Below, one piece after another: positions 17,310 to 56,085 of a DNA stretch of 64,000 nucleotides. Position numbers and translations under genes: made by a program. Under the pieces are notes generated by a model. That model made no database searches, was not told the DNA's origin, and saw nothing but the letters and a program-made list of their open reading frames with translations. Source of the DNA: Planctomycetota bacterium (GTDB taxonomy: Bacteria > Planctomycetota > UBA8108 > SXIK01); NCBI GenBank assembly GCA_965223845.1, contig CBDCXR010000004.1:3787334-3851333 (forward strand), read 5' to 3'. How positions within the stretch are numbered: the stretch's first letter is position 1; every line of letters begins with the position of its first letter.

Positions 17310-18500
17310 TCAACAAGAGCCGTAGACACACTCCGTGTGCTCGTCGTCGACGGTCGGGTCCGGGCCGCAAGTCTCGAGACCCGGCGGAGCCGGAGGCGCC
17401 TCACCCTGAAAGAGGCTCCCGAGAAGATGGAGCGGGTCGTTCAGATTGATCCCGCCGTCGTCGTTCACATCGGAGGCATCGGGACAGGGGGATGGATCCG
17501 CGCTCTTGAAGAGGTGGTTCAGGAGAGAAATCGCATCCGAAATATTGACCGATCCGTCGGTGTCGAAGTCGCCGCGGCGAAAGTCGACGGCCGGTGCGTC
17601 GCCGATGATCGCCGTACAGGTGAGGCTACCGTCCTCGCCGCAAGCGATGTCGCAGACGGACGCGACGAGCGTGTAGACATTCTCTCCGGCAACCGGCTCG
17701 GAATCGGTGTACCCCGTCGACGTGACGCGCGGTTGGTTCTCGAGCGGCACTCCGTTTCGCGAGAGCTCGATGCTCGTGTACGCGGTCCCCGCCGGACGCG
17801 TCCAGCGAACGCGAACCGAGCCGTTGTCGCGGACTTCGCAGGTGATCTCGGTCGGGCAGGGATCCGCATCGTCGACGAAAAGCTCCGGCTCGAGAACGAA
17901 ATCCGAGCTGTCGAGCGACGTATTGTGTCCCTGAATCGCGATGACGTTTTCGCCCGCTTGAAGCGAAGCGATCGCCTCGCAGTTGCTGATCACTATGCTC
18001 TGAAACTGATTCTCGCTCGCCCGATTCGTCGCCGTGGCGTCGAACGGAACTGGATCGCCGGGGTTCCCCGGGAGACCGACGCGCGCGGCCTCGATTCCGT
18101 TGATGTACGCCACGAAGCCGTCGTCGTAGCGAATGAAGAGCCTCAGCTTCGAGACCGCACTCGGATCGTCGATAGTAAAGATGCTGCGGATGTAGAGGCT
18201 CCAGAACCCGGTGTTGCCTCCACCGCCCTGCATCCCGTCGATCATGGTGTTGATCCAGGCCTCGCCGTACCCGAGCGCACTCGGACCGAGATCCCAGCGC
18301 CGATCGTCGTACTCGGCGGTGAACCAATCGGGATCGGGCTCTTCCACGCCGGGAAAGTACGTCCAGAGGTCACCGGATTGGATCAGCTGGACTTCTTCCG
18401 TCTTCGCCGGGGCCGCGAACACGAACGCGACGACGAACGGGACCGCAGACCGAGCGAAGCGCTTCGCTCCCACAAGCCTCTTCGGATGAACAGCGCGCAT
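17310..18500 (-). CDS. secreted protein: jelly-roll (galactose-binding-like) domain + Ig/Fn3-like domain + C-terminal dockerin-like module
   Basis: GGAGGG lies 4 nt upstream of the ATG at 18500. Signal peptide RSAVPFVVAFVFAAPAKTEE. The N-terminal domain has the pattern W.YF....P...W....YDD..W..G...LGYG ... YIR..F...D......L.L...YDDGFVAYING. The C-terminus carries two DxDxDG loops. Confidence 0.75.
   Translation of the reverse strand: MRAVHPKRLVGAKRFARSAVPFVVAFVFAAPAKTEEVQLIQSGDLWTYFPGVEEPDPDWFTAEYDDRRWDLGPSALGYGEAWINTMIDGMQGGGGNTGFWSLYIRSIFTIDDPSAVSKLRLFIRYDDGFVAYINGIEAARVGLPGNPGDPVPFDATATNRASENQFQSIVISNCEAIASLQAGENVIAIQGHNTSLDSSDFVLEPELFVDDADPCPTEITCEVRDNGSVRVRWTRPAGTAYTSIELSRNGVPLENQPRVTSTGYTDSEPVAGENVYTLVASVCDIACGEDGSLTCTAIIGDAPAVDFRRGDFDTDGSVNISDAISLLNHLFKSADPSPCPDASDVNDDGGINLNDPLHLLGSLFQGEAPPAPPGLETCGPDPTVDDEHTECVYGSC
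17313..17588 (-). other. dockerin-like double EF-hand module, copy 3 (C-terminal)
   Basis: VDFRRGDFDTDGSVNISDAISLLNHLF...PCPDASDVNDDGGINLNDPLHLLGSLF...PPAPPGLETCGPDPTVDDEHTEC is colinear with the modules at 46406-46684 and 47042-47320. Confidence 0.7.
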
Positions 18501-18835
18501 CACACCCTCCCTCACGAACGTTCGCGACGCATCGGCCGCCGGATCGTAGCGAATCGAATCTCAAACCGGACGGCTTTGCGAGACCACAGTCGCGCCGCTC
18601 AGCGAGCGGCTCCGACCGAGCGGCGCCTCCGAGACCCCTGGAGATCCGCCGCAGGCAAGCGTCCGAGCGCCTTCCATTTAATGAGCGCTCGCCTCCCCTG
18701 TAAAGAACGGCGACGTGTCGACGCCGACTTCACTTGCCGCTCGGCGACGAATCGGTCAACATTCCCAGCCCGCGGGCGAGAGCCATCTACGATGAGGAGC
18801 CCGCCGCGAGTCCACTACCGCAAGGCGAACACCGC

Positions 18836-42932: not shown

Positions 42933-44372
42933 TCAAGCGAGGAAGCCGAGAGGAGCGAAGTACCCGTCGCGATCGTCGGCCGCGAGACGCCCGTAGCCGG
43001 GAATGATCTCGCCGATCCTGGACGCCGGATCCCCGAGATGTTGCGTGAGGATCTCGTGGTAGACCGCGCGAAAATCCGTGCGGTGCGCCAGATACCGGCC
43101 GTTTGCGGTGGAGAAGAGATCGCCGTTCTCCCAGCGGTCCGGAGAACAGTTGTAGACGCCCCCGCGCACTCCGCCTCCGAGGGCGAACAGACAGGCGGCC
43201 TCGCCGTGATCGGTCCCCCCGTTCGCGTTCTGGAGCGATGTGCGGCCGAATTCCGTCAGGGTGACGATCAGGACGTCGTTCCAGATCGGCTTCAAGTCGA
43301 AGTAGAGCGCCGTGAGCGCCGCGCCGAGATCGCGAAGAAGTCGAGGAAACGCGGTGACCTGATTCCCGTGCGTATCGTAGTTCCCTTGGTTGCAGCCCGT
43401 GATCTGCAGTCCGTCGACCTGCTTGAGGAGCCGCGCGCAGTCCGCTACGAATCCCGCAAACGCTCGGTCGCTGATGGCAGCGTAGTGCGGCACGGCGTTC
43501 GGCTCCGGATCGTACGGCGCCTCGCGGACGTGAGTCTCGAAGAACTCGAGACTCTCGAGCAGGGTACGCCCGGTCGAGTAGGCGAGCGTCTCGTATGGGA
43601 TCGTCCGCGTAAGACTTCGACCGTACGCGCCCTTGAGGCCGGATCCGATCGGCGGCGCAGCGTTCGGAAACTCGCCGAGCGGCACTCCGGCGGGGAGGGC
43701 GTAGTCGGCGACGGAGCGCAAGACCGGAACGAGGGTCGGTCCCTTCATGAGAACGACTTGGTTGCCGCTGAGTGTCGCGGCGCGCATCGGGTTCGCAGGA
43801 TCAGGATACGCCGTCAGGTAGCGGTTGAACACGCCGTCCTCGCGTGTCGTCTCGCCCGGGAGGCCATTCTCCCAAAACTGCTGGCTCGAAAAGTGCGAGC
43901 GGTTCTGCTCGGCGTAGCCGACGCGGTGAAGAACAGCGAGCTGCGGCCCGCGTTCGTCGAGCCGACCATGAAAGATATCAGCGAGCCGCGGTGCGCCGTC
44001 GCCCGACTCATCGACCGTCGGGTAGAAGTGAGCGAATCCGTTGAGATCGTGCGTCCGCGCCCGGTCCGGACGGAGCTGTGGACGTGCCTCCTCGAACGTC
44101 GGCGCACGCCCGGAGATCCCGGGGTCGCCGTAAGGAATCACCGCCTGGACGCCGTCGAGTCCTCCGCGAAGGAAGATGAAGAGGATCTTCTTCCGCCTCC
44201 CGGCGGGATCGACCGCCGCTGGCTCGCCCGCAAGAGCCGTACCGATCGTCCGGTGAAAAGGCGCCGGAACGCCGAAGCCCAACGCGGCGAGAGACGCCGC
44301 ACTCCAGCGGCAGAATCTGCGCCGACCGAATCGACGAAGCGGATTCCAGATTCGTTCTTCAGATGAATTCAT
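42933..44372 (-). CDS. DUF1501 domain protein (sulfatase-fold, TAT signal)
   Basis: Twin-arginine N-terminus RRFGRRRFCRWSAASLAALG. KILFIFLRGGLDG and TEFGRT...NGGTDHG are family-typical. ATGA overlap with the DUF1800 stop. Confidence 0.9.
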   Translation of the reverse strand: MNSSEERIWNPLRRFGRRRFCRWSAASLAALGFGVPAPFHRTIGTALAGEPAAVDPAGRRKKILFIFLRGGLDGVQAVIPYGDPGISGRAPTFEEARPQLRPDRARTHDLNGFAHFYPTVDESGDGAPRLADIFHGRLDERGPQLAVLHRVGYAEQNRSHFSSQQFWENGLPGETTREDGVFNRYLTAYPDPANPMRAATLSGNQVVLMKGPTLVPVLRSVADYALPAGVPLGEFPNAAPPIGSGLKGAYGRSLTRTIPYETLAYSTGRTLLESLEFFETHVREAPYDPEPNAVPHYAAISDRAFAGFVADCARLLKQVDGLQITGCNQGNYDTHGNQVTAFPRLLRDLGAALTALYFDLKPIWNDVLIVTLTEFGRTSLQNANGGTDHGEAACLFALGGGVRGGVYNCSPDRWENGDLFSTANGRYLAHRTDFRAVYHEILTQHLGDPASRIGEIIPGYGRLAADDRDGYFAPLGFLA

Positions 44373-46798
44373 TGGAGCTGAAATTGAGGCAAACTAGCGA
44401 GGAATGCGGTCACGGCGCGGACGCGATCGACGGCTCCCGCTTCGCGGTAGATCTCGAGCGCGAGCTCGCGATGCTCGACGGGGAGGGCTTGGCCGTGGAG
44501 GAGGAGCGCGAAAAACTCGACCACTCGCTCCCCGCTGTCGAGCGCCCACTGCCGCTGAAACGAGAGCGGATTCCACACGAACCGCCGATCGGCCGGAGAC
44601 CCGGGGTGGATTCCGCGGCTGAGATACTTGAGCCGCTCGAGGAGTCCGATCGTGTGCATCCAGTCGAAGCCGAGCTCCGACTCCCCCGTCGGATCGGCGA
44701 ACTCGAAGAGCTCCATTCCCGCGAGAGTGAGCTCTCGCGACGCGCGAATTCCGTCGTTGACGCTCAAGCCTCCGTCTAGCGCCCGTACCGCGCTCACAAT
44801 CGTCTCGAGCGGTGTCTTTACCTTGGCGCAGGCGTACTCGAGGCTCAGGAACTCGTCCGAGCGAAGGATCGTCCGCACGACCTCGCGCAAGTCTCCGTTC
44901 GAGTGCGCCCACGCGTCGATGACGTCGACGAGAAGATCCGGCTCTTGGTACTCGCGCGGAGAGATTCGCTCGTCCGCGTTCGTGTCGAGTCGGCGAAAGA
45001 CCGCGAGCGGTCTCCCATTCGGAAGAACGAGCGGGATCGGCATCTCCCACTCGTCGAGATCGAGCAATCCGTCACCATCGGAATCGACGCTCTCGAAGTG
45101 CGCAGCGAGCTCGGCGCGGAGAGGGTATGTGCGAGGAAGAGCGGAAAGATCGTCCGTCACGAAGAGCTGGATCAGCTTCGTTCCGACGAACTTCGCCGTG
45201 TCGCGGAAATGCGCGATTCGTCGCAAGACGAGGTCGAACTCCTCGACCGCCCGCTCCGGCGTCCGCTGATCTTCGTTGGCGGGAATCGTGAGCGCCGCCC
45301 GCGGCGGAACGGGGTTCCCGAGCGAGTCGACGCCCCCGTAGCGCGGGAGGAACAGATCTTTTCGCCCCCAATCGTGGCCGCCGTCTCGGAGTCCGGGATG
45401 GCCGAACGCGAAGGCCCACACGTACGTCCCGTCGTCCCAATTCGCCCGCGCCGGGAAGGCAAACGGCCGAGGCTCGCGCCCATCGATCGGGAATCGCGGG
45501 AGGTCGGGCTGGTCGTGAAAGCCGATGTCGTGCGGAAAAAAATGCCGCCGCTCGACCCACGCGACCGTCCAGCCCGTAAGGATGCGCGAGAGCTCCTCGA
45601 TGTCGCGCTGAGTGTACAGATGGTCCACGCCGAGCGTCGACAGCTCAAGCACTTCGCGCGCGTAGTTCTCATTCGGGGCTGCGGCGGTATTCTCGAAGCC
45701 GTTCAAGTAGATGAGCATCGCAACGCTCTTCGCCGAACCTTCGACGAGATCCGCAAAGCTCCCGAGCGCGTGACGCCGAAAGTACTCGTACTCTCGGCGC
45801 TCCATGTCCGCGGCGACAGCGAGCTGAGCGGCGCCGGTTCCGTACTTCCAGTACGCGACCGGAGCGAACTCGAACTCGGCGGGACTCAGCGTGCCGTCGG
45901 CCGTCGAGCGACCGAACTCCGCGAAGCTACGCACACCGGGATGCGCCGCGCGAAACTCACTCCACTCGCCGGCGTCGATCGTGCCGGAGCCGTCGCCATC
46001 GACGTGCCGAAACAGCTCCGCCGAACCGCGCGCGGCGACCCCCCCGCGTCGCATCCGTCCAAAAAAGAGGTCGCGGAGGGTCGTGATCTGAGTGTGAAAG
46101 TGGTTGTTCCAAAACAGCGCGAGGACGTGGAGCAGCTGCCACCGGCTCGAACGCGCGTTTTCGATCAGCATCGCTTCGAGGCGCTCGATGGGCGCGCCCG
46201 ACACCGGATCGCGAAAGCCGATGCGGAGACGATCGATGCGCTGCGCGAGCTCGGGTTCGTGGCCGACCGGATCGTAGTCGACCGGGGGGCGCAGCTGATC
46301 CTCGATATACCGCTCGAGATCGGCGCGCGTTTGAATCCGGGCGAGCAACTCCTCGTTTGGGCCGAACGTGATTCTTCTCAGTGCATGAGCGATGAGCGCG
46401 GTGTCGTCCGGGCACAGCTCGTACTTCGAGCAGCCTAGGTACCCAGAGTTGCGATCGACGCCGCAGGCGACCGGCCCCGGAGGAGCGGGCGGTGGCAGGT
46501 CGCCGAAGAGATGGCCGAGGAGATAGAGCGCATCGGAAATGTCGACGCCATCGTCGTCGTTCGCGTTGGCGGCTTCGACGCACGTCCCGCGACGGCTCTC
46601 CGCGAAGAGTGCGTTCAACACGAAGATCGGATCGGCGACGTTGACCGCACCGTCTGCGTTGGCGTCGCCGCGGCGAAACTGAACCCGGCGAACGAAGGAA
46701 TCTCCGAGCGTCGCGACCAACGGAAGGAGCGTCAAGCAGGTGACGCGCGCCGCGACCGCCAACCCTCCCCCGAACATCCTCTGTCGCTGCTCGCGCAT
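44369..46798 (-). CDS. DUF1800 domain protein with N-terminal dockerin-like module and inserted EF-hand loops
   Basis: DUF1800 blocks LFWNNHFHT, MLIYLNG...NENYAREVLELSTLGV...RILTGW. N-terminal dockerin-like module. Inserted DGDGSGTIDAGEW, DSDGDGLLDLDEW and DTNADERISPREY loops. Start MREQ (46798) or MFGGG (46777). Confidence 0.85.
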   Translation of the reverse strand: MREQRQRMFGGGLAVAARVTCLTLLPLVATLGDSFVRRVQFRRGDANADGAVNVADPIFVLNALFAESRRGTCVEAANANDDDGVDISDALYLLGHLFGDLPPPAPPGPVACGVDRNSGYLGCSKYELCPDDTALIAHALRRITFGPNEELLARIQTRADLERYIEDQLRPPVDYDPVGHEPELAQRIDRLRIGFRDPVSGAPIERLEAMLIENARSSRWQLLHVLALFWNNHFHTQITTLRDLFFGRMRRGGVAARGSAELFRHVDGDGSGTIDAGEWSEFRAAHPGVRSFAEFGRSTADGTLSPAEFEFAPVAYWKYGTGAAQLAVAADMERREYEYFRRHALGSFADLVEGSAKSVAMLIYLNGFENTAAAPNENYAREVLELSTLGVDHLYTQRDIEELSRILTGWTVAWVERRHFFPHDIGFHDQPDLPRFPIDGREPRPFAFPARANWDDGTYVWAFAFGHPGLRDGGHDWGRKDLFLPRYGGVDSLGNPVPPRAALTIPANEDQRTPERAVEEFDLVLRRIAHFRDTAKFVGTKLIQLFVTDDLSALPRTYPLRAELAAHFESVDSDGDGLLDLDEWEMPIPLVLPNGRPLAVFRRLDTNADERISPREYQEPDLLVDVIDAWAHSNGDLREVVRTILRSDEFLSLEYACAKVKTPLETIVSAVRALDGGLSVNDGIRASRELTLAGMELFEFADPTGESELGFDWMHTIGLLERLKYLSRGIHPGSPADRRFVWNPLSFQRQWALDSGERVVEFFALLLHGQALPVEHRELALEIYREAGAVDRVRAVTAFLASLPQFQLQ
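46406..46684 (-). other. dockerin-like double EF-hand module, copy 1 (N-terminal, DUF1800 protein)
   Basis: VQFRRGDANADGAVNVADPIFVLNALF...TCVEAANANDDDGVDISDALYLLGHLFG...PPPAPPGPVACGVD...C. Confidence 0.7.
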
Positions 46799-46975
46799 TC
46801 GAGTTTCGTCTCTCGCTTCGCCGGCCGATGGCACCGGTGATCTAACCGCGCATCCTCCGTCTTTCTTGTACCCGAGAACGATCTCTCGTGCGCCTCCGAA
46901 CCGCGCGCGACCTTGGCTCGGGTCGGAACTCGTGAGACGATGGCGAGAACGAAACGGCTCCGAGTTCCATCGACA

Positions 46976-48526
46976 ATGCGCTTCACCCTCGCGTTCTGCG
47001 CTCTAACTCTGGTCGTCGCGTTCTCGTCCATCGCGCGAGCCGAAGACTTCGTTCGCGGTGATGGGAACGGCGACGCGGCGGTCGACATCGCCGATCCGGT
47101 TTTCGTCTTTCTCGCCCTCTTCGGCAGCGAAGGTCCTCTACCCTGCGCCGACGCGGCGGACGCCAACGACGACGGCGCTGTCGACGTCGCGGACGTCGCC
47201 TATCTCCTCAACTATCTCTTCGGCGACGGGACCGCCCCGCCGCCGCCGGGTGACGGCCCATGCGGAGGCGTCGACCCGACGCTCGACGAGCTCGCGTGTT
47301 CGGAGCCGCTCGAACCGCCGCTCGCGAGCGGACCACCGAGGCTCCGCTGGACGGCGACGTACGCGCCGGCACGGGGACTGGAGCAGCGAACTCGGCTCCC
47401 TCTTTCGACGGAAAGCGACGACACGGTCCGCGCCGACCTCGGCGTCGCGTTTTCCCTGCTTCTCGAGGCTTCGGCACATCCGGACGGCCGCGCGCCCGTC
47501 GAGATTCTGCTCGACCCTCACACTGTCGATCCGGAAGTCCTCGCCGTACGCTGCGATCGCGATCTCCTCTCGCCCGAGGGGATCGTCCCGGCCGGCACCA
47601 ATCTCGCCCCGTGGTTCTCACGCGAGACCGAGGGCTGGATCGACCCGATCTACCTCACCCAGGAGGTCGCGCTCCGGGTCGATCGCCTCACCTCGGTAGG
47701 ACCGATCGATCCGGGTCGCCACGTGTTCACAGCGGAAGCGGTCGACACCGCTTGCGCTCGTGCGTCTCCTGCTGCGATCGCGATCGAGATCGTACCGTCG
47801 CTCGCCCCGCGGATCTCCATCGCCGCGATCGACGAGACCGGAGCTCCGCACCCCCACCACGCGGGGAGCGGCAACCTTCGCGTTTCGCCCGGAGCGGACG
47901 ACATCCTCCTCGAGATCGATGCCACCCCGAACGCCGCCGTTGAGGACGCGCCCATCGACGCGGAGAGTCTACACGTCTCGTCCTCGCCGCCGGTGGACGG
48001 CGCGGCCGATCTCACGGAACGATTCGAGCGCGTCGCACCGACTCTCTGCCGATGGCGGGGCCGCGTCCCCGTGCGCGAGCTCACGCCCGGGAACACGACG
48101 ATCACGGTTTCGCTTCGGTCGGCGAATGACGCCGCGGCGAGCAGCGTCCTCTTCACGATCGAGCTCGAGGTGTCGTACGCCCGCGACGTCCAGTCGATTT
48201 GGAACGCCAACTGCTCCGGCTGCCACGAGGGGCCGAACGCGGCGCGCGGACTCGAGCTCGTCGCGCCCGGAGAAGACCCGGAGGAAATTCGGCGCTCCTT
48301 CGTCAACGTGTTCGCTGCGGGGCCGTCGATCGAATCGGTCGCGCCGGTTCACGTCCGCCCGTTCTTTCCGCGCCGGAGCTACCTCTTTCACAAGCTCGAG
48401 GGCACGCACCTCGACGAGCCCGTCCGCGGCAGCGGCGAACGCATGCCGGCGGACGGTCCGCCGTACTTGAGTGAGGCTGCCATCCACACGGTCCGGAGCT
48501 GGATCGTCCAGGGCGCCGCTCCGTAA
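46976..48526 (+). CDS. secreted protein: N-terminal dockerin-like module, central beta-rich region, C-terminal CxxCH (PSCyt1-like) heme-binding domain
   Basis: Signal peptide MRFTLAFCALTLVVAFSSIARA. Dockerin-like module. C-terminal VQSIWNANCSGCHEG..ARGLEL...SYLFHKLEG...MP...PYLSEAAIHTVRSWI resembles the planctomycete cytochrome c domain. Confidence 0.75.
   Translation: MRFTLAFCALTLVVAFSSIARAEDFVRGDGNGDAAVDIADPVFVFLALFGSEGPLPCADAADANDDGAVDVADVAYLLNYLFGDGTAPPPPGDGPCGGVDPTLDELACSEPLEPPLASGPPRLRWTATYAPARGLEQRTRLPLSTESDDTVRADLGVAFSLLLEASAHPDGRAPVEILLDPHTVDPEVLAVRCDRDLLSPEGIVPAGTNLAPWFSRETEGWIDPIYLTQEVALRVDRLTSVGPIDPGRHVFTAEAVDTACARASPAAIAIEIVPSLAPRISIAAIDETGAPHPHHAGSGNLRVSPGADDILLEIDATPNAAVEDAPIDAESLHVSSSPPVDGAADLTERFERVAPTLCRWRGRVPVRELTPGNTTITVSLRSANDAAASSVLFTIELEVSYARDVQSIWNANCSGCHEGPNAARGLELVAPGEDPEEIRRSFVNVFAAGPSIESVAPVHVRPFFPRRSYLFHKLEGTHLDEPVRGSGERMPADGPPYLSEAAIHTVRSWIVQGAAP
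47042..47320 (+). other. dockerin-like double EF-hand module, copy 2 (N-terminal, CxxCH protein)
   Basis: EDFVRGDGNGDAAVDIADPVFVFLALFG...PCADAADANDDGAVDVADVAYLLNYLFG...PPPPGDGPCGGVDPTLDELAC. Confidence 0.7.
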
Positions 48527-53150: not shown

Positions 53151-53400
53151 GCTCTAATTCTATCCCGGACCGCGCGGGAGTTTCTACTCCGCCGCACGTT
53201 TCTCGGCGGACGCGGGCTGGGCCGGCTCGGTTTCGCGCGCGCCCCGGGCAGCGCGCCGCGATACGATGCGCTCGCGGTCGATTTCCGACCGATCATAGGC
53301 CCCACCCACTCGAAATCGACGAGCTCCCACGATGCCGTTTCTCCCTCGACGTCGACCCGACGAACGTGTGCGCAGAGATCGAACGCCGCACGCATACACG

Positions 53401-56085
53401 ATGTCTCCCTCCTCGATCGCGTTTCCACTCGTCGCCGGCGTGCTGGTCGCGAAACTCGCGTTCGGAGACCCGACCGCCCTCCCTCTGGACCGCGGCGCCG
53501 CGGGACTCGAGCGCGCGCTGAAGCAGCTCTCGACGACGGCGAGCGTTCTCCACGTCGTCGCCCACCCCGACGACGAAGACGGCCCGCTCCTCACCTACCT
53601 CGCGCGCGGGCGCGGTGTGCGTACGATGGCCCTCTCGCTCACACGCGGTGAAGGCGGCGCAAATCTCATCGCACCGTATTTCTTCGATGAGCTCGGCGTC
53701 CTTCGCACGCTCGAATACCTCGAGGCGAATCGCTACTACGGCGTCGAACAGTTCTTCACCCGCGCCGCAGACTACGGGTACTCGAAACAGCTCTCCGAAG
53801 CCCAGCGCAAGTGGAAGGGATCCGAGATCCTGCTCGAGGACATGGTTCGCGTGATCCGCCGCGAGCGCCCGGACGTCGTGATCTCGCGCTTCTGGGGCGG
53901 GCGGAGAGACGGTCACGGTCACCACACCCTCGCGGGTGTCCTCACGCCGGAGGCCTGCGCCGCCGCCGCGGATCCGGAACGCTTCCCCGATCAACTGCGC
54001 GAAGGGCTCTTTCCCTGGCGAGTGAAGAAGCTCTACCGCGGGAACATCCGCCCCGAGCGCCGCGCGGAGGACGCGGAGGCGTGGACGGTGAAGGTCGATG
54101 CGGGCGAGTACGATCCCCTCCTCGGGGCGTCGTACTACCAGATCGCGCGCCGGGGCTACGGTTTCCATCGCTCCCAGGGGATCCTCCATCACGACGGTCG
54201 CGCCGGCAGCCGCGTCAGCCACTACCAGCTCATTCCGGCCGACTCGGACGAGCGCGTCGTAGAGGAAAGCCTGTTCGACGGCCTCGATACGACCCTTCGC
54301 GGTCTCACCGAATACTGGAGTGGCGAGACTCCGGCTTGGCTCGTCGACGGACTCGATCGGACTGCGGACTGGATCGCCTCCGCCCGTTCAGAATTCCGCG
54401 CGGACGATCCGCCGCGTATCGTTCCCCCGCTCGCGAACGCGCTGCGCTCGGTGCGCTCGCTCTCGAGTCAACTCTTCGACACGAGCTCCGGCACGCCCGA
54501 AAGCCATCGCGAGATCGCACGGCACCTCGCGCGGAAGGAACACGAACTCGAGCGCGCGCTCAGCCTCGCGCTCGGAATCGATCTCGAGGCGGCCGCGGGG
54601 AGAGACTCGCTCACCGGTTCGTCGCCCTTCTCACGCTCGAGCACGTTCGCCCACGCGACCCCGGGACAGATGTTCGACGTCGGTGTACGCCTCGTGCATC
54701 GCAGCCGCGTCCCGGTCGAGTTTCTGAAGGCGACGCTGAGCCTACCTCCGGGTTGGAGCTCGATGCTTCGAGACGCGACTCCGCCCGACTCGAATCTCGC
54801 TTACAACGGCGAAGCCCGGGCGAAGTTCAGCGTCGCGGTACCTTCCGCAGCATCGCCCACCCGACCGTACTGGCGACGCGCATCGATTTCCGACGCGTTT
54901 TACGACGTCGTCGATTCGCTCGCGACGCTGCCGTTCGCCCCGCCGCCGGCGTCCTGCCGCGCGACGATTCGCGTCGCCGGCGTCGAGGTCTCGGTCGACA
55001 CTCCGGTCCGCCTCGTCCTTCGCGATCCGGGGCTCGGGACTCGCTATCCGCCGCTCGCCGTCGCGCCACCGGTCAGCGTTCGATTCGCCGAGGGCGCGGG
55101 GATCCTGCCGCGCGGCAGGACGCGCTACGAGCTCACCGTGACCGTCCGCGGCGACGTCGCGGGCGGCGCATCGGGCGACGTGCGCCTCCAGGTCCCCGCC
55201 GGCTGGTCCGTCGAACCGGCGAGTGCGCCGTTTCGATTCGATCGCGAGGGCGCCGAGTCGACGCTCCGCTTCACGCTCTCGGCGCCGACGGAGCCCGCCG
55301 GCGAACGGTACGAAATCCGCGCGATCGCACGCCACGCGGACCGTGAGTACTCCGAAGGCTACCGGACGATCGAAGCACGCGACGTCGGCCGCTACGATTA
55401 CTATCTACCCGCGATTCACCGAGTGCGCGTCGTCGACGTCAACCTCGCGAACGACCTCGCCATCGCTTACGTGACGGGTTCCGGAGACGACATTCCGCAG
55501 AGCCTCCGTTTCCTCGGAATCGCGCCGACGCTTCTCGATTCCGAGACGCTCCAGAGCGGTGACCTCGATCGCTTCGACGCGATCGTCGTCGGCGTTCGGG
55601 CCTACGCGGTCCGAGAAGACGTCCGCCGCGTCAACTCGCGCCTCCTCGGCTACGTCGAACGCGGCGGCGTCCTCGTCGTTCAGTACCAGACGCCCGAGTT
55701 CGATCGAAACTTCGGCCCGTATCCGTATTCGATGGGACGCGCCGAAGAAGTGAGCGAGGAAGACGCCGCGGTCCGCATCCTCGCCCCGGAACATCCGCTT
55801 TTCACACAGCCGAATGCGATCGCCGCCGCCGACTTCGACGACTGGGTTGAGCAGCGCGGCTCGAAGTTCTGGGCGACCTGGGATGAGCGATACACACCGC
55901 TTCTCGAATGCCACGACGAAGACCAGGAACCACAACGCGGCGGGATGCTCTACGCACGCTCCGGAAAGGGCGCATACATCTACAGCGCGTACGCATGGTA
56001 CCGCCAGCTTCCCGCGGGAGTTCCCGGTGCGTTCAGGATCTACGCCAACCTGCTGTCCCACCGGAGAACTCTCGAGTCTCGCTAG
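53401..56085 (+). CDS. PIG-L (LmbE-like) family deacetylase fused to beta-sandwich repeats and a C-terminal ThuA/GATase1-like domain
   Basis: VLHVVAHPDDEDG and HGHHTLAG (PIG-L metal site). The central region is Ig-like. The C-terminal segment DRFDAIVVGVRAYAVRED...GGVLVVQYQT resembles class-I amidotransferase-like/ThuA-like folds. Confidence 0.82.
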   Translation: MSPSSIAFPLVAGVLVAKLAFGDPTALPLDRGAAGLERALKQLSTTASVLHVVAHPDDEDGPLLTYLARGRGVRTMALSLTRGEGGANLIAPYFFDELGVLRTLEYLEANRYYGVEQFFTRAADYGYSKQLSEAQRKWKGSEILLEDMVRVIRRERPDVVISRFWGGRRDGHGHHTLAGVLTPEACAAAADPERFPDQLREGLFPWRVKKLYRGNIRPERRAEDAEAWTVKVDAGEYDPLLGASYYQIARRGYGFHRSQGILHHDGRAGSRVSHYQLIPADSDERVVEESLFDGLDTTLRGLTEYWSGETPAWLVDGLDRTADWIASARSEFRADDPPRIVPPLANALRSVRSLSSQLFDTSSGTPESHREIARHLARKEHELERALSLALGIDLEAAAGRDSLTGSSPFSRSSTFAHATPGQMFDVGVRLVHRSRVPVEFLKATLSLPPGWSSMLRDATPPDSNLAYNGEARAKFSVAVPSAASPTRPYWRRASISDAFYDVVDSLATLPFAPPPASCRATIRVAGVEVSVDTPVRLVLRDPGLGTRYPPLAVAPPVSVRFAEGAGILPRGRTRYELTVTVRGDVAGGASGDVRLQVPAGWSVEPASAPFRFDREGAESTLRFTLSAPTEPAGERYEIRAIARHADREYSEGYRTIEARDVGRYDYYLPAIHRVRVVDVNLANDLAIAYVTGSGDDIPQSLRFLGIAPTLLDSETLQSGDLDRFDAIVVGVRAYAVREDVRRVNSRLLGYVERGGVLVVQYQTPEFDRNFGPYPYSMGRAEEVSEEDAAVRILAPEHPLFTQPNAIAAADFDDWVEQRGSKFWATWDERYTPLLECHDEDQEPQRGGMLYARSGKGAYIYSAYAWYRQLPAGVPGAFRIYANLLSHRRTLESR

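Follow-up and report, generated by a model that had tools for sequence, protein, structure and literature searches.

A dockerin-type module with an additional Cys/Pro tail on three unrelated, apparently secreted proteins of a planctomycete

In the 64-kb window, by which we mean the whole stretch of DNA that was analysed, the gene for protein 1 lies on the minus strand and encodes a signal peptide, a jelly-roll domain, an Ig-like domain and a dockerin-type module in this order. Two paralogues of the module are found on two other proteins encoded in the window:

17310..18500 (-): gene for protein 1 as given in the ORF list, 396 aa counted from the ATG at 18500
18405..18500 (-): predicted Sec-type signal peptide MRAVHPKRLVGAKRFARSAVPFVVAFVFAAPA, in which a hydrophobic stretch comes after a basic n-region
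17871..18392 (-): galactose-binding-like jelly-roll domain, from the AlphaFold model and Foldseek
17601..17858 (-): Ig/Fn3-like beta-sandwich domain, all-beta and mostly confident in the AlphaFold model
17313..17588 (-): dockerin-type module, the last 92 aa of protein 1, with core residues 1-60 and Cys/Pro tail 61-92
17535..17570 (-): calcium-binding loop 1 DFDTDGSVNISD, 12-residue F-hand pattern D-x-[DN]-x-D-G-x-x-x-x-x-D
17436..17471 (-): calcium-binding loop 2 DVNDDGGINLND, sharing the pattern of loop 1
17313..17408 (-): conserved tail QGEAPPAPPGLETCGPDPTVDDEHTECVYGSC, carrying Cys74, Cys87 and Cys92
46412..46684 (-): paralogous module 2, 4-Cys type, adjoining the signal peptide of an 821-aa DUF1800/EF-hand protein (gene 44369-46834)
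47042..47299 (+): paralogous module 3, with C1, C2 and C3 only, adjoining the signal peptide of a 537-aa protein (gene 46913-48526)

The open reading frame of protein 1 (17310-18515, minus strand, 401 aa) reaches 5' as far as a GTG at 18515. A GGAGGG motif lies upstream of the ATG at 18500, the likely start codon, and the stop codon (17310-17312) directly follows the module. The 396-aa protein is identical to database protein P0002, recorded on a contig of 7.87 Mb. Its signal peptide reaches a Kyte-Doolittle mean of 2.57 over 12 aa, and export by the Sec pathway would be expected. In the full-length AlphaFold model the jelly-roll domain has a pLDDT mostly above 80, falling below 60 around residues 71-90, and Foldseek matched it with E 1e-9 to the sugar-binding domain at the N-terminus of GH2 glycosidases. 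Together with the Ig-like domain, for which a weak sequence match to the Fn3-like protein 3mpc was also detected, it aligns onto the N-terminal two-domain unit of these enzymes. The model and the GH2 match bear out the description of the host as 'jelly-roll/Fn3-like', given before in a sequence-only reading of this DNA. As modelled, protein 1 is a non-catalytic host that combines an Ig-like domain with a jelly roll resembling sugar-binding domains; in its homologues the jelly-roll unit is repeated or joined with LTD or CotH domains.

Positions 17313-17588 encode exactly the 92 aa that had been quoted as the module, plus the final VYGSC. Two 21-residue repeats share 9 of 21 residues, the loop positions of the F-hand pattern are 70-90% conserved across 367 modules, and the F-x-R-G-D entry into loop 1 is near-invariant in the family. 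Dockerins are defined by two segments of ~22 residues with a 12-residue calcium loop followed by a helix, and this arrangement is found in the module of protein 1, with helices predicted at residues 16-28 and 50-60 (AlphaFold). A search with Pfam PF00404 (Dockerin_1) matched residues 315-360 in the 401-aa ORF with 25.7 bits and E 1.3e-5, above the gathering threshold of 22.9 bits. Modules 2 and 3 scored 14.9 and 14.2 bits, both below threshold, and are clearly homologous to the Dockerin_1-positive copy by profile and alignment. The top PDB sequence matches of the module were type I dockerins. Modelling with a 56-sequence alignment gave a pLDDT of 93.4 and a pTM of 0.84, the full-length run with nine orthologues yielding a pLDDT of 30-45 for the same module. 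The module model superposed on solved dockerins with 1.6-1.9 A over 59-65 residues at 26-33% identity and has the dockerin fold; the Foldseek E of 6e-3 is modest, as expected for a 60-residue domain. By sequence and predicted fold, the module is a dockerin with an additional Cys/Pro tail.

Other assignments were rejected. NCBIfam NF041540, the GC-type dockerin (a dockerin-like domain of GC-rich bacteria; cut-off 29 bits), matched neither protein 1 nor the isolated module and gave weak matches to the N-terminal window copies only, with 17.3 and 12.9 bits for their two proteins. A canonical EF-hand pair was discarded as no match of EF-hand_1/5/6/7 to protein 1 was obtained at E<=1, and in the AlphaFold model no helix precedes loop 1, unlike in a canonical EF-hand. 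Some relatives of the module show sub-threshold EF-hand_7 matches. A cellulosome component, which would have its dockerin on carbohydrate-active catalytic modules and a CBM-bearing scaffoldin with several cohesins, was ruled out by the nature of the host proteins (jelly-roll and Ig without catalytic domain, DUF1800, cytochrome-c-like), and a census of 74 relatives led mainly to FG-GAP, PKD, peroxidase and peptidase domains.

The tail has no counterpart in the solved dockerins, with which the alignments stop at about residue 65. In the 367 modules its motif, PPxPG..CG.DPT.D.L.C...C, reaches the conservation of the calcium loops, with P69, G75 and D77 each at ~90% and P78, T79, D81 and C87 each at ~80%, and across nine orthologues the tail does not vary. 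The fourth cysteine of the module, Cys35, sits in the inter-repeat linker outside the tail, and none of the four cysteines varies among the nine orthologues. When cysteine co-occurrence was counted across 329 modules, which are related and non-independent sequences, the CG cysteine tended to occur with the final one (odds ratio 159, p 2e-61) and the linker cysteine together with that of DPTxDxLxC (odds ratio 23). This co-occurrence suggests that the tail is stapled by one or two disulfides, with the pairing Cys35-Cys87 probably present in all variants and Cys74-Cys92 probably added in the 4-Cys variant of protein 1. No hydrophobic segment was detected in the tail (maximum 12-aa hydropathy -0.13).

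The C-terminal module of protein 1 had been claimed to match the two N-terminal modules at 46.4-47.3 kb, about 29 kb away from its own position at 17.3 kb, and both the match (E of about 1e-45) and the distance hold. Over their first ~75 residues the three modules can be aligned gap-free, with pairwise amino-acid identities of 44-52%, and in a four-sequence alignment of the window copies and P0001 the invariant residues include F3, R5, G6, D7, C35, P66, P68, P69, G70, C74, G75 and D77. The HMM scan that had been proposed, performed with a three-copy profile against all six frames of the window, recovered the three modules with E 7e-45 to 2e-49 (2e-49 for module 2, 3e-47 for module 3) and no fourth copy, the next best match having E > 2. 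The likeness is therefore far beyond chance and extends past the DxDxDG loops, contrary to the outcome that the sequence-only reading had named as its refutation. The conservation of the Cys spacing and of the Pro/Cys tail, also claimed before, applies to the tail but only in part to the cysteines, of which the module at 47042-47299 has three of four and is without the last. Nucleotide identity among the three copies is 58-64%, falling to 48-49% at third codon positions, and the longest exact runs are 13-15 nt. For the choice between recent shuffling and an ancient family raised earlier, these values rule out recent domain shuffling and identify the three copies, as far as sequence comparison goes, as old paralogues.

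The three scaffolds are unrelated, as had been noticed before: besides the jelly-roll and Ig-like domains of protein 1, they comprise Pfam DUF1800 (242 bits) with further EF-hands in the 821-aa protein, and a CxxCH cytochrome-c-like C-terminus in the 537-aa protein (Cytochrome_CBB3 22.8 bits, below threshold). All three proteins look secreted. With one C-terminal copy and two directly behind a signal peptide, the module is indeed portable to either terminus.

When the 92-aa module by itself was put through a word-indexed homologue search, one match was obtained; an exhaustive profile search gave 40,499 cluster representatives with E<=1e-3 (20,128 with E<=1e-10). By label the family is almost entirely from Planctomycetota (66 of the 80 best genome loci carry labels beginning with Planctomycet), and judged by these sequences it is a Planctomycetota-specific dockerin subtype. 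Modules in related genomes are placed N-terminally, internally or C-terminally alongside at least 35 Pfam families, with FG-GAP, PKD, di-haem peroxidase, cytochrome c, peptidase, cupredoxin and lectin domains among the partners, and the same Cys/Pro tail is present in hundreds of them. In the loci most similar to the protein 1 copy, 68 of 78 modules are C-terminal, an excess that is biased by seeding of the sample with patterns from a C-terminal copy. Some proteins consist almost wholly of tandem modules (2 to 16 matched stretches, each unit with its own tail), and others of a signal peptide and one module. A phage origin or enrichment of the module was also considered and dropped, as a narrow-alignment scan of viral contigs gave four loci only.

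Pfam Cohesin was detected above threshold in six module-bearing proteins, and many locus ORFs gave sub-threshold Cohesin scores only. The segments between modules are mutually homologous (hhalign 97%), and the top 21 PDB matches of their profile include solved cohesins (best E 8e-6). Modules (D) were found mixed with cohesin-like domains (C) in 78 of the 150 best-scoring proteins, a fraction that overstates how often module and cohesin occur on one polypeptide, since ranking by total score favours multi-copy proteins; the layouts among these 78 include DCDCD (28), DCD (19) and DCCD (13). A cohesin-like segment is also present in 12 of 74 complete module-bearing locus ORFs, some of them with 4-Cys modules. 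In the 64-kb window itself no cohesin-like domain was found, the best profile matches having E 0.01-0.08 and scores near zero; one such weak match, with E 0.01-0.03 and a score of 3.4, coincides with the NPCBM_assoc beta-sandwich in the protein encoded at 53332-56085 and is regarded as noise.

The alternation with cohesin-like domains in the 78 of 150 best proteins supports a docking role. Of the 'portable docking or sorting domain' proposed in the sequence-only reading, docking is therefore retained, by the dockerin fold and the cohesin-like fusions in relatives, and sorting is not, as there is no hydrophobic anchor and the position is not fixed. With somewhat better than even confidence, we favour a Planctomycetota-specific, non-cellulosomal dockerin with a pinned tail that docks its host onto cohesin-like domains. 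The two calcium-binding F-hand repeats would form the usual three-helix dockerin core, and the proline-rich tail would fold back to the N-terminus, pinned by disulfides. After Sec export, the module would dock protein 1 in a calcium-dependent manner onto cohesin-like domains whose genes lie outside the window, the DUF1800 and cytochrome-c-like proteins at 46-47 kb would be docked likewise, and a cohesin-dockerin assembly located at the cell envelope would carry all three window proteins as cargo. The sequence family, the predicted fold, the portability, the co-occurring cysteines and the cohesin-like fusions of relatives are observations; in this scheme we infer the disulfide pairing, the export, the act of docking and the cohesin partner in the same genome.

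Alternatively, the module may be a calcium-binding, disulfide-stabilised structural or spacer module without dedicated partner, which would stabilise or solubilise secreted proteins or buffer calcium, a role generally ascribed to bacterial TSP3 or EF-hand-like repeats. Proteins of nearly only tandem modules (2 to 16 stretches) and stand-alone proteins with a signal peptide and a single module do not fit a simple cargo model and agree with such a spacer, as do the window without cohesin, the further EF-hands of the DUF1800 protein and the fact that conservation is highest at calcium ligands, core hydrophobics, cysteines and prolines and not at obvious surface positions. However, repeated fusion to cohesin homologues in regular alternation would be unexpected for a passive spacer, and in its fold the module is specifically a dockerin, so that we regard this explanation as rather unlikely.

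A sorting or secretion tag read by an export or anchoring machine, comparable to PEP-CTERM, LPXTG or T9SS C-terminal domains, is considerably less probable still. All three window proteins appear secreted, and a tag would agree with the 68 of 78 C-terminal modules in the closest loci if this excess were not biased by the C-terminal seed; yet the window has two N-terminal copies against one C-terminal, copies placed internally or in tandem are frequent, the tail has neither a hydrophobic helix nor a basic end (maximum 12-aa hydropathy -0.13), and the fold is that of a helical dockerin and not the T9SS beta-sandwich. N-terminal copies, hydropathy and helical fold also exclude membership in PEP-CTERM, LPXTG, GlyGly-CTERM or T9SS CTD. 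That unrelated stretches merely share DxDxDG loops in a GC-rich genome, as might be suspected from two copies under the Pfam dockerin threshold and from a high GC content favouring Asp, Gly, Ala and Pro codons, is refuted by profile E-values of about 1e-45 with nothing else in six frames, by the ungapped alignment with its invariant Cys/Pro tail, and by the identical tail type in hundreds of modules elsewhere, including its conservation in the 367 modules, which leaves next to no probability for a chance likeness.

Compared with the type I dockerins of clostridial and ruminococcal cellulosomes (Acetivibrio thermocellus Cel48S 2mte, Doc435 4dh2, ScaB 4uyq), the module shares the two 21-22-residue F-hand repeats with 12-residue calcium loops, the three-helix core and the internal two-fold sequence symmetry. 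It differs by the 30-residue Pro/Cys tail with one or two probable disulfides, by the F-x-R-G-D entry, by being placed also right behind a signal peptide, by hosts that are not glycoside hydrolases, and by its occurrence in Gram-negative-type Planctomycetota. It is a solid but fairly ordinary dockerin case, a tailed variant of a known dockerin type, and a search of the open-access literature found no published description of a Cys/Pro-tailed subtype, which is a weak negative. Peer et al. reportedly described non-cellulosomal cohesin- and dockerin-like modules in three domains of life in 2009 (FEMS Microbiol Lett), and the general idea of dockerins being widespread outside cellulosomes on diverse proteins is shared here; the scale of the present family (tens of thousands of cluster representatives) stems from recent metagenomes.

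If docking is true, three functionally unrelated window proteins are clients of one assembly system, and the module is a sequence tag that lists the clients in any Planctomycetota genome, including many of unknown function such as DUF1800/DUF1501 pairs and planctomycete cytochrome-c-like proteins. A self-polymerising scaffold is moreover suggested by the proteins in which dockerin and cohesin alternate, and such a scaffold would be relevant to the envelope and surface of planctomycetes, structures of which little is understood. A wider proposal is possible but distinctly tentative: tailed dockerin and divergent cohesin might constitute a Planctomycetota-wide non-cellulosomal self-assembly system, in which secreted alternating proteins (DCDCD, DCD, Coh-Doc) would polymerise via their own modules into an envelope or extracellular lattice that recruits hundreds of single-module cargo proteins per genome (redox proteins such as the DUF1800/DUF1501 and cytochrome-c-like ones seen here, lectin-like binders, peptidases), the stapled tail would provide a mode of binding or stability unseen in clostridial dockerins, and phages may now and then encode interfering stand-alone modules. 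As a defined difference from clostridial dockerins, the conserved and probably stapled tail may interest engineers of cohesin-dockerin pairs.

For freshwater Planctomycetes, a 'planctosome' of cohesins and dockerins was put forward, with modules on non-cellulolytic proteins, among them peptidases and HYR-domain proteins, and with adaptors that carry both dockerin and cohesin; domain annotation in a single lineage, Nemodlikiaceae, underlies that model (Andrei et al. 2019, ISME J, PMC6461901). Similarly, M12/reprolysin peptidases are among the module-bearing ORFs studied here, Astacin and HYR genes neighbour a module gene, and proteins mixing modules with cohesin-like domains occur. The planctosome passages of that paper contain neither the Cys/Pro tail nor DCDCD layouts, and the two systems are likened here by description. 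Tandem dockerins are known from the double-dockerin protein Clo1313_0689 of A. thermocellus (8x39/8x3a), which is among the fold matches of the module; in the present family, tandem arrays reach 16 matched stretches, each unit with its own tail.

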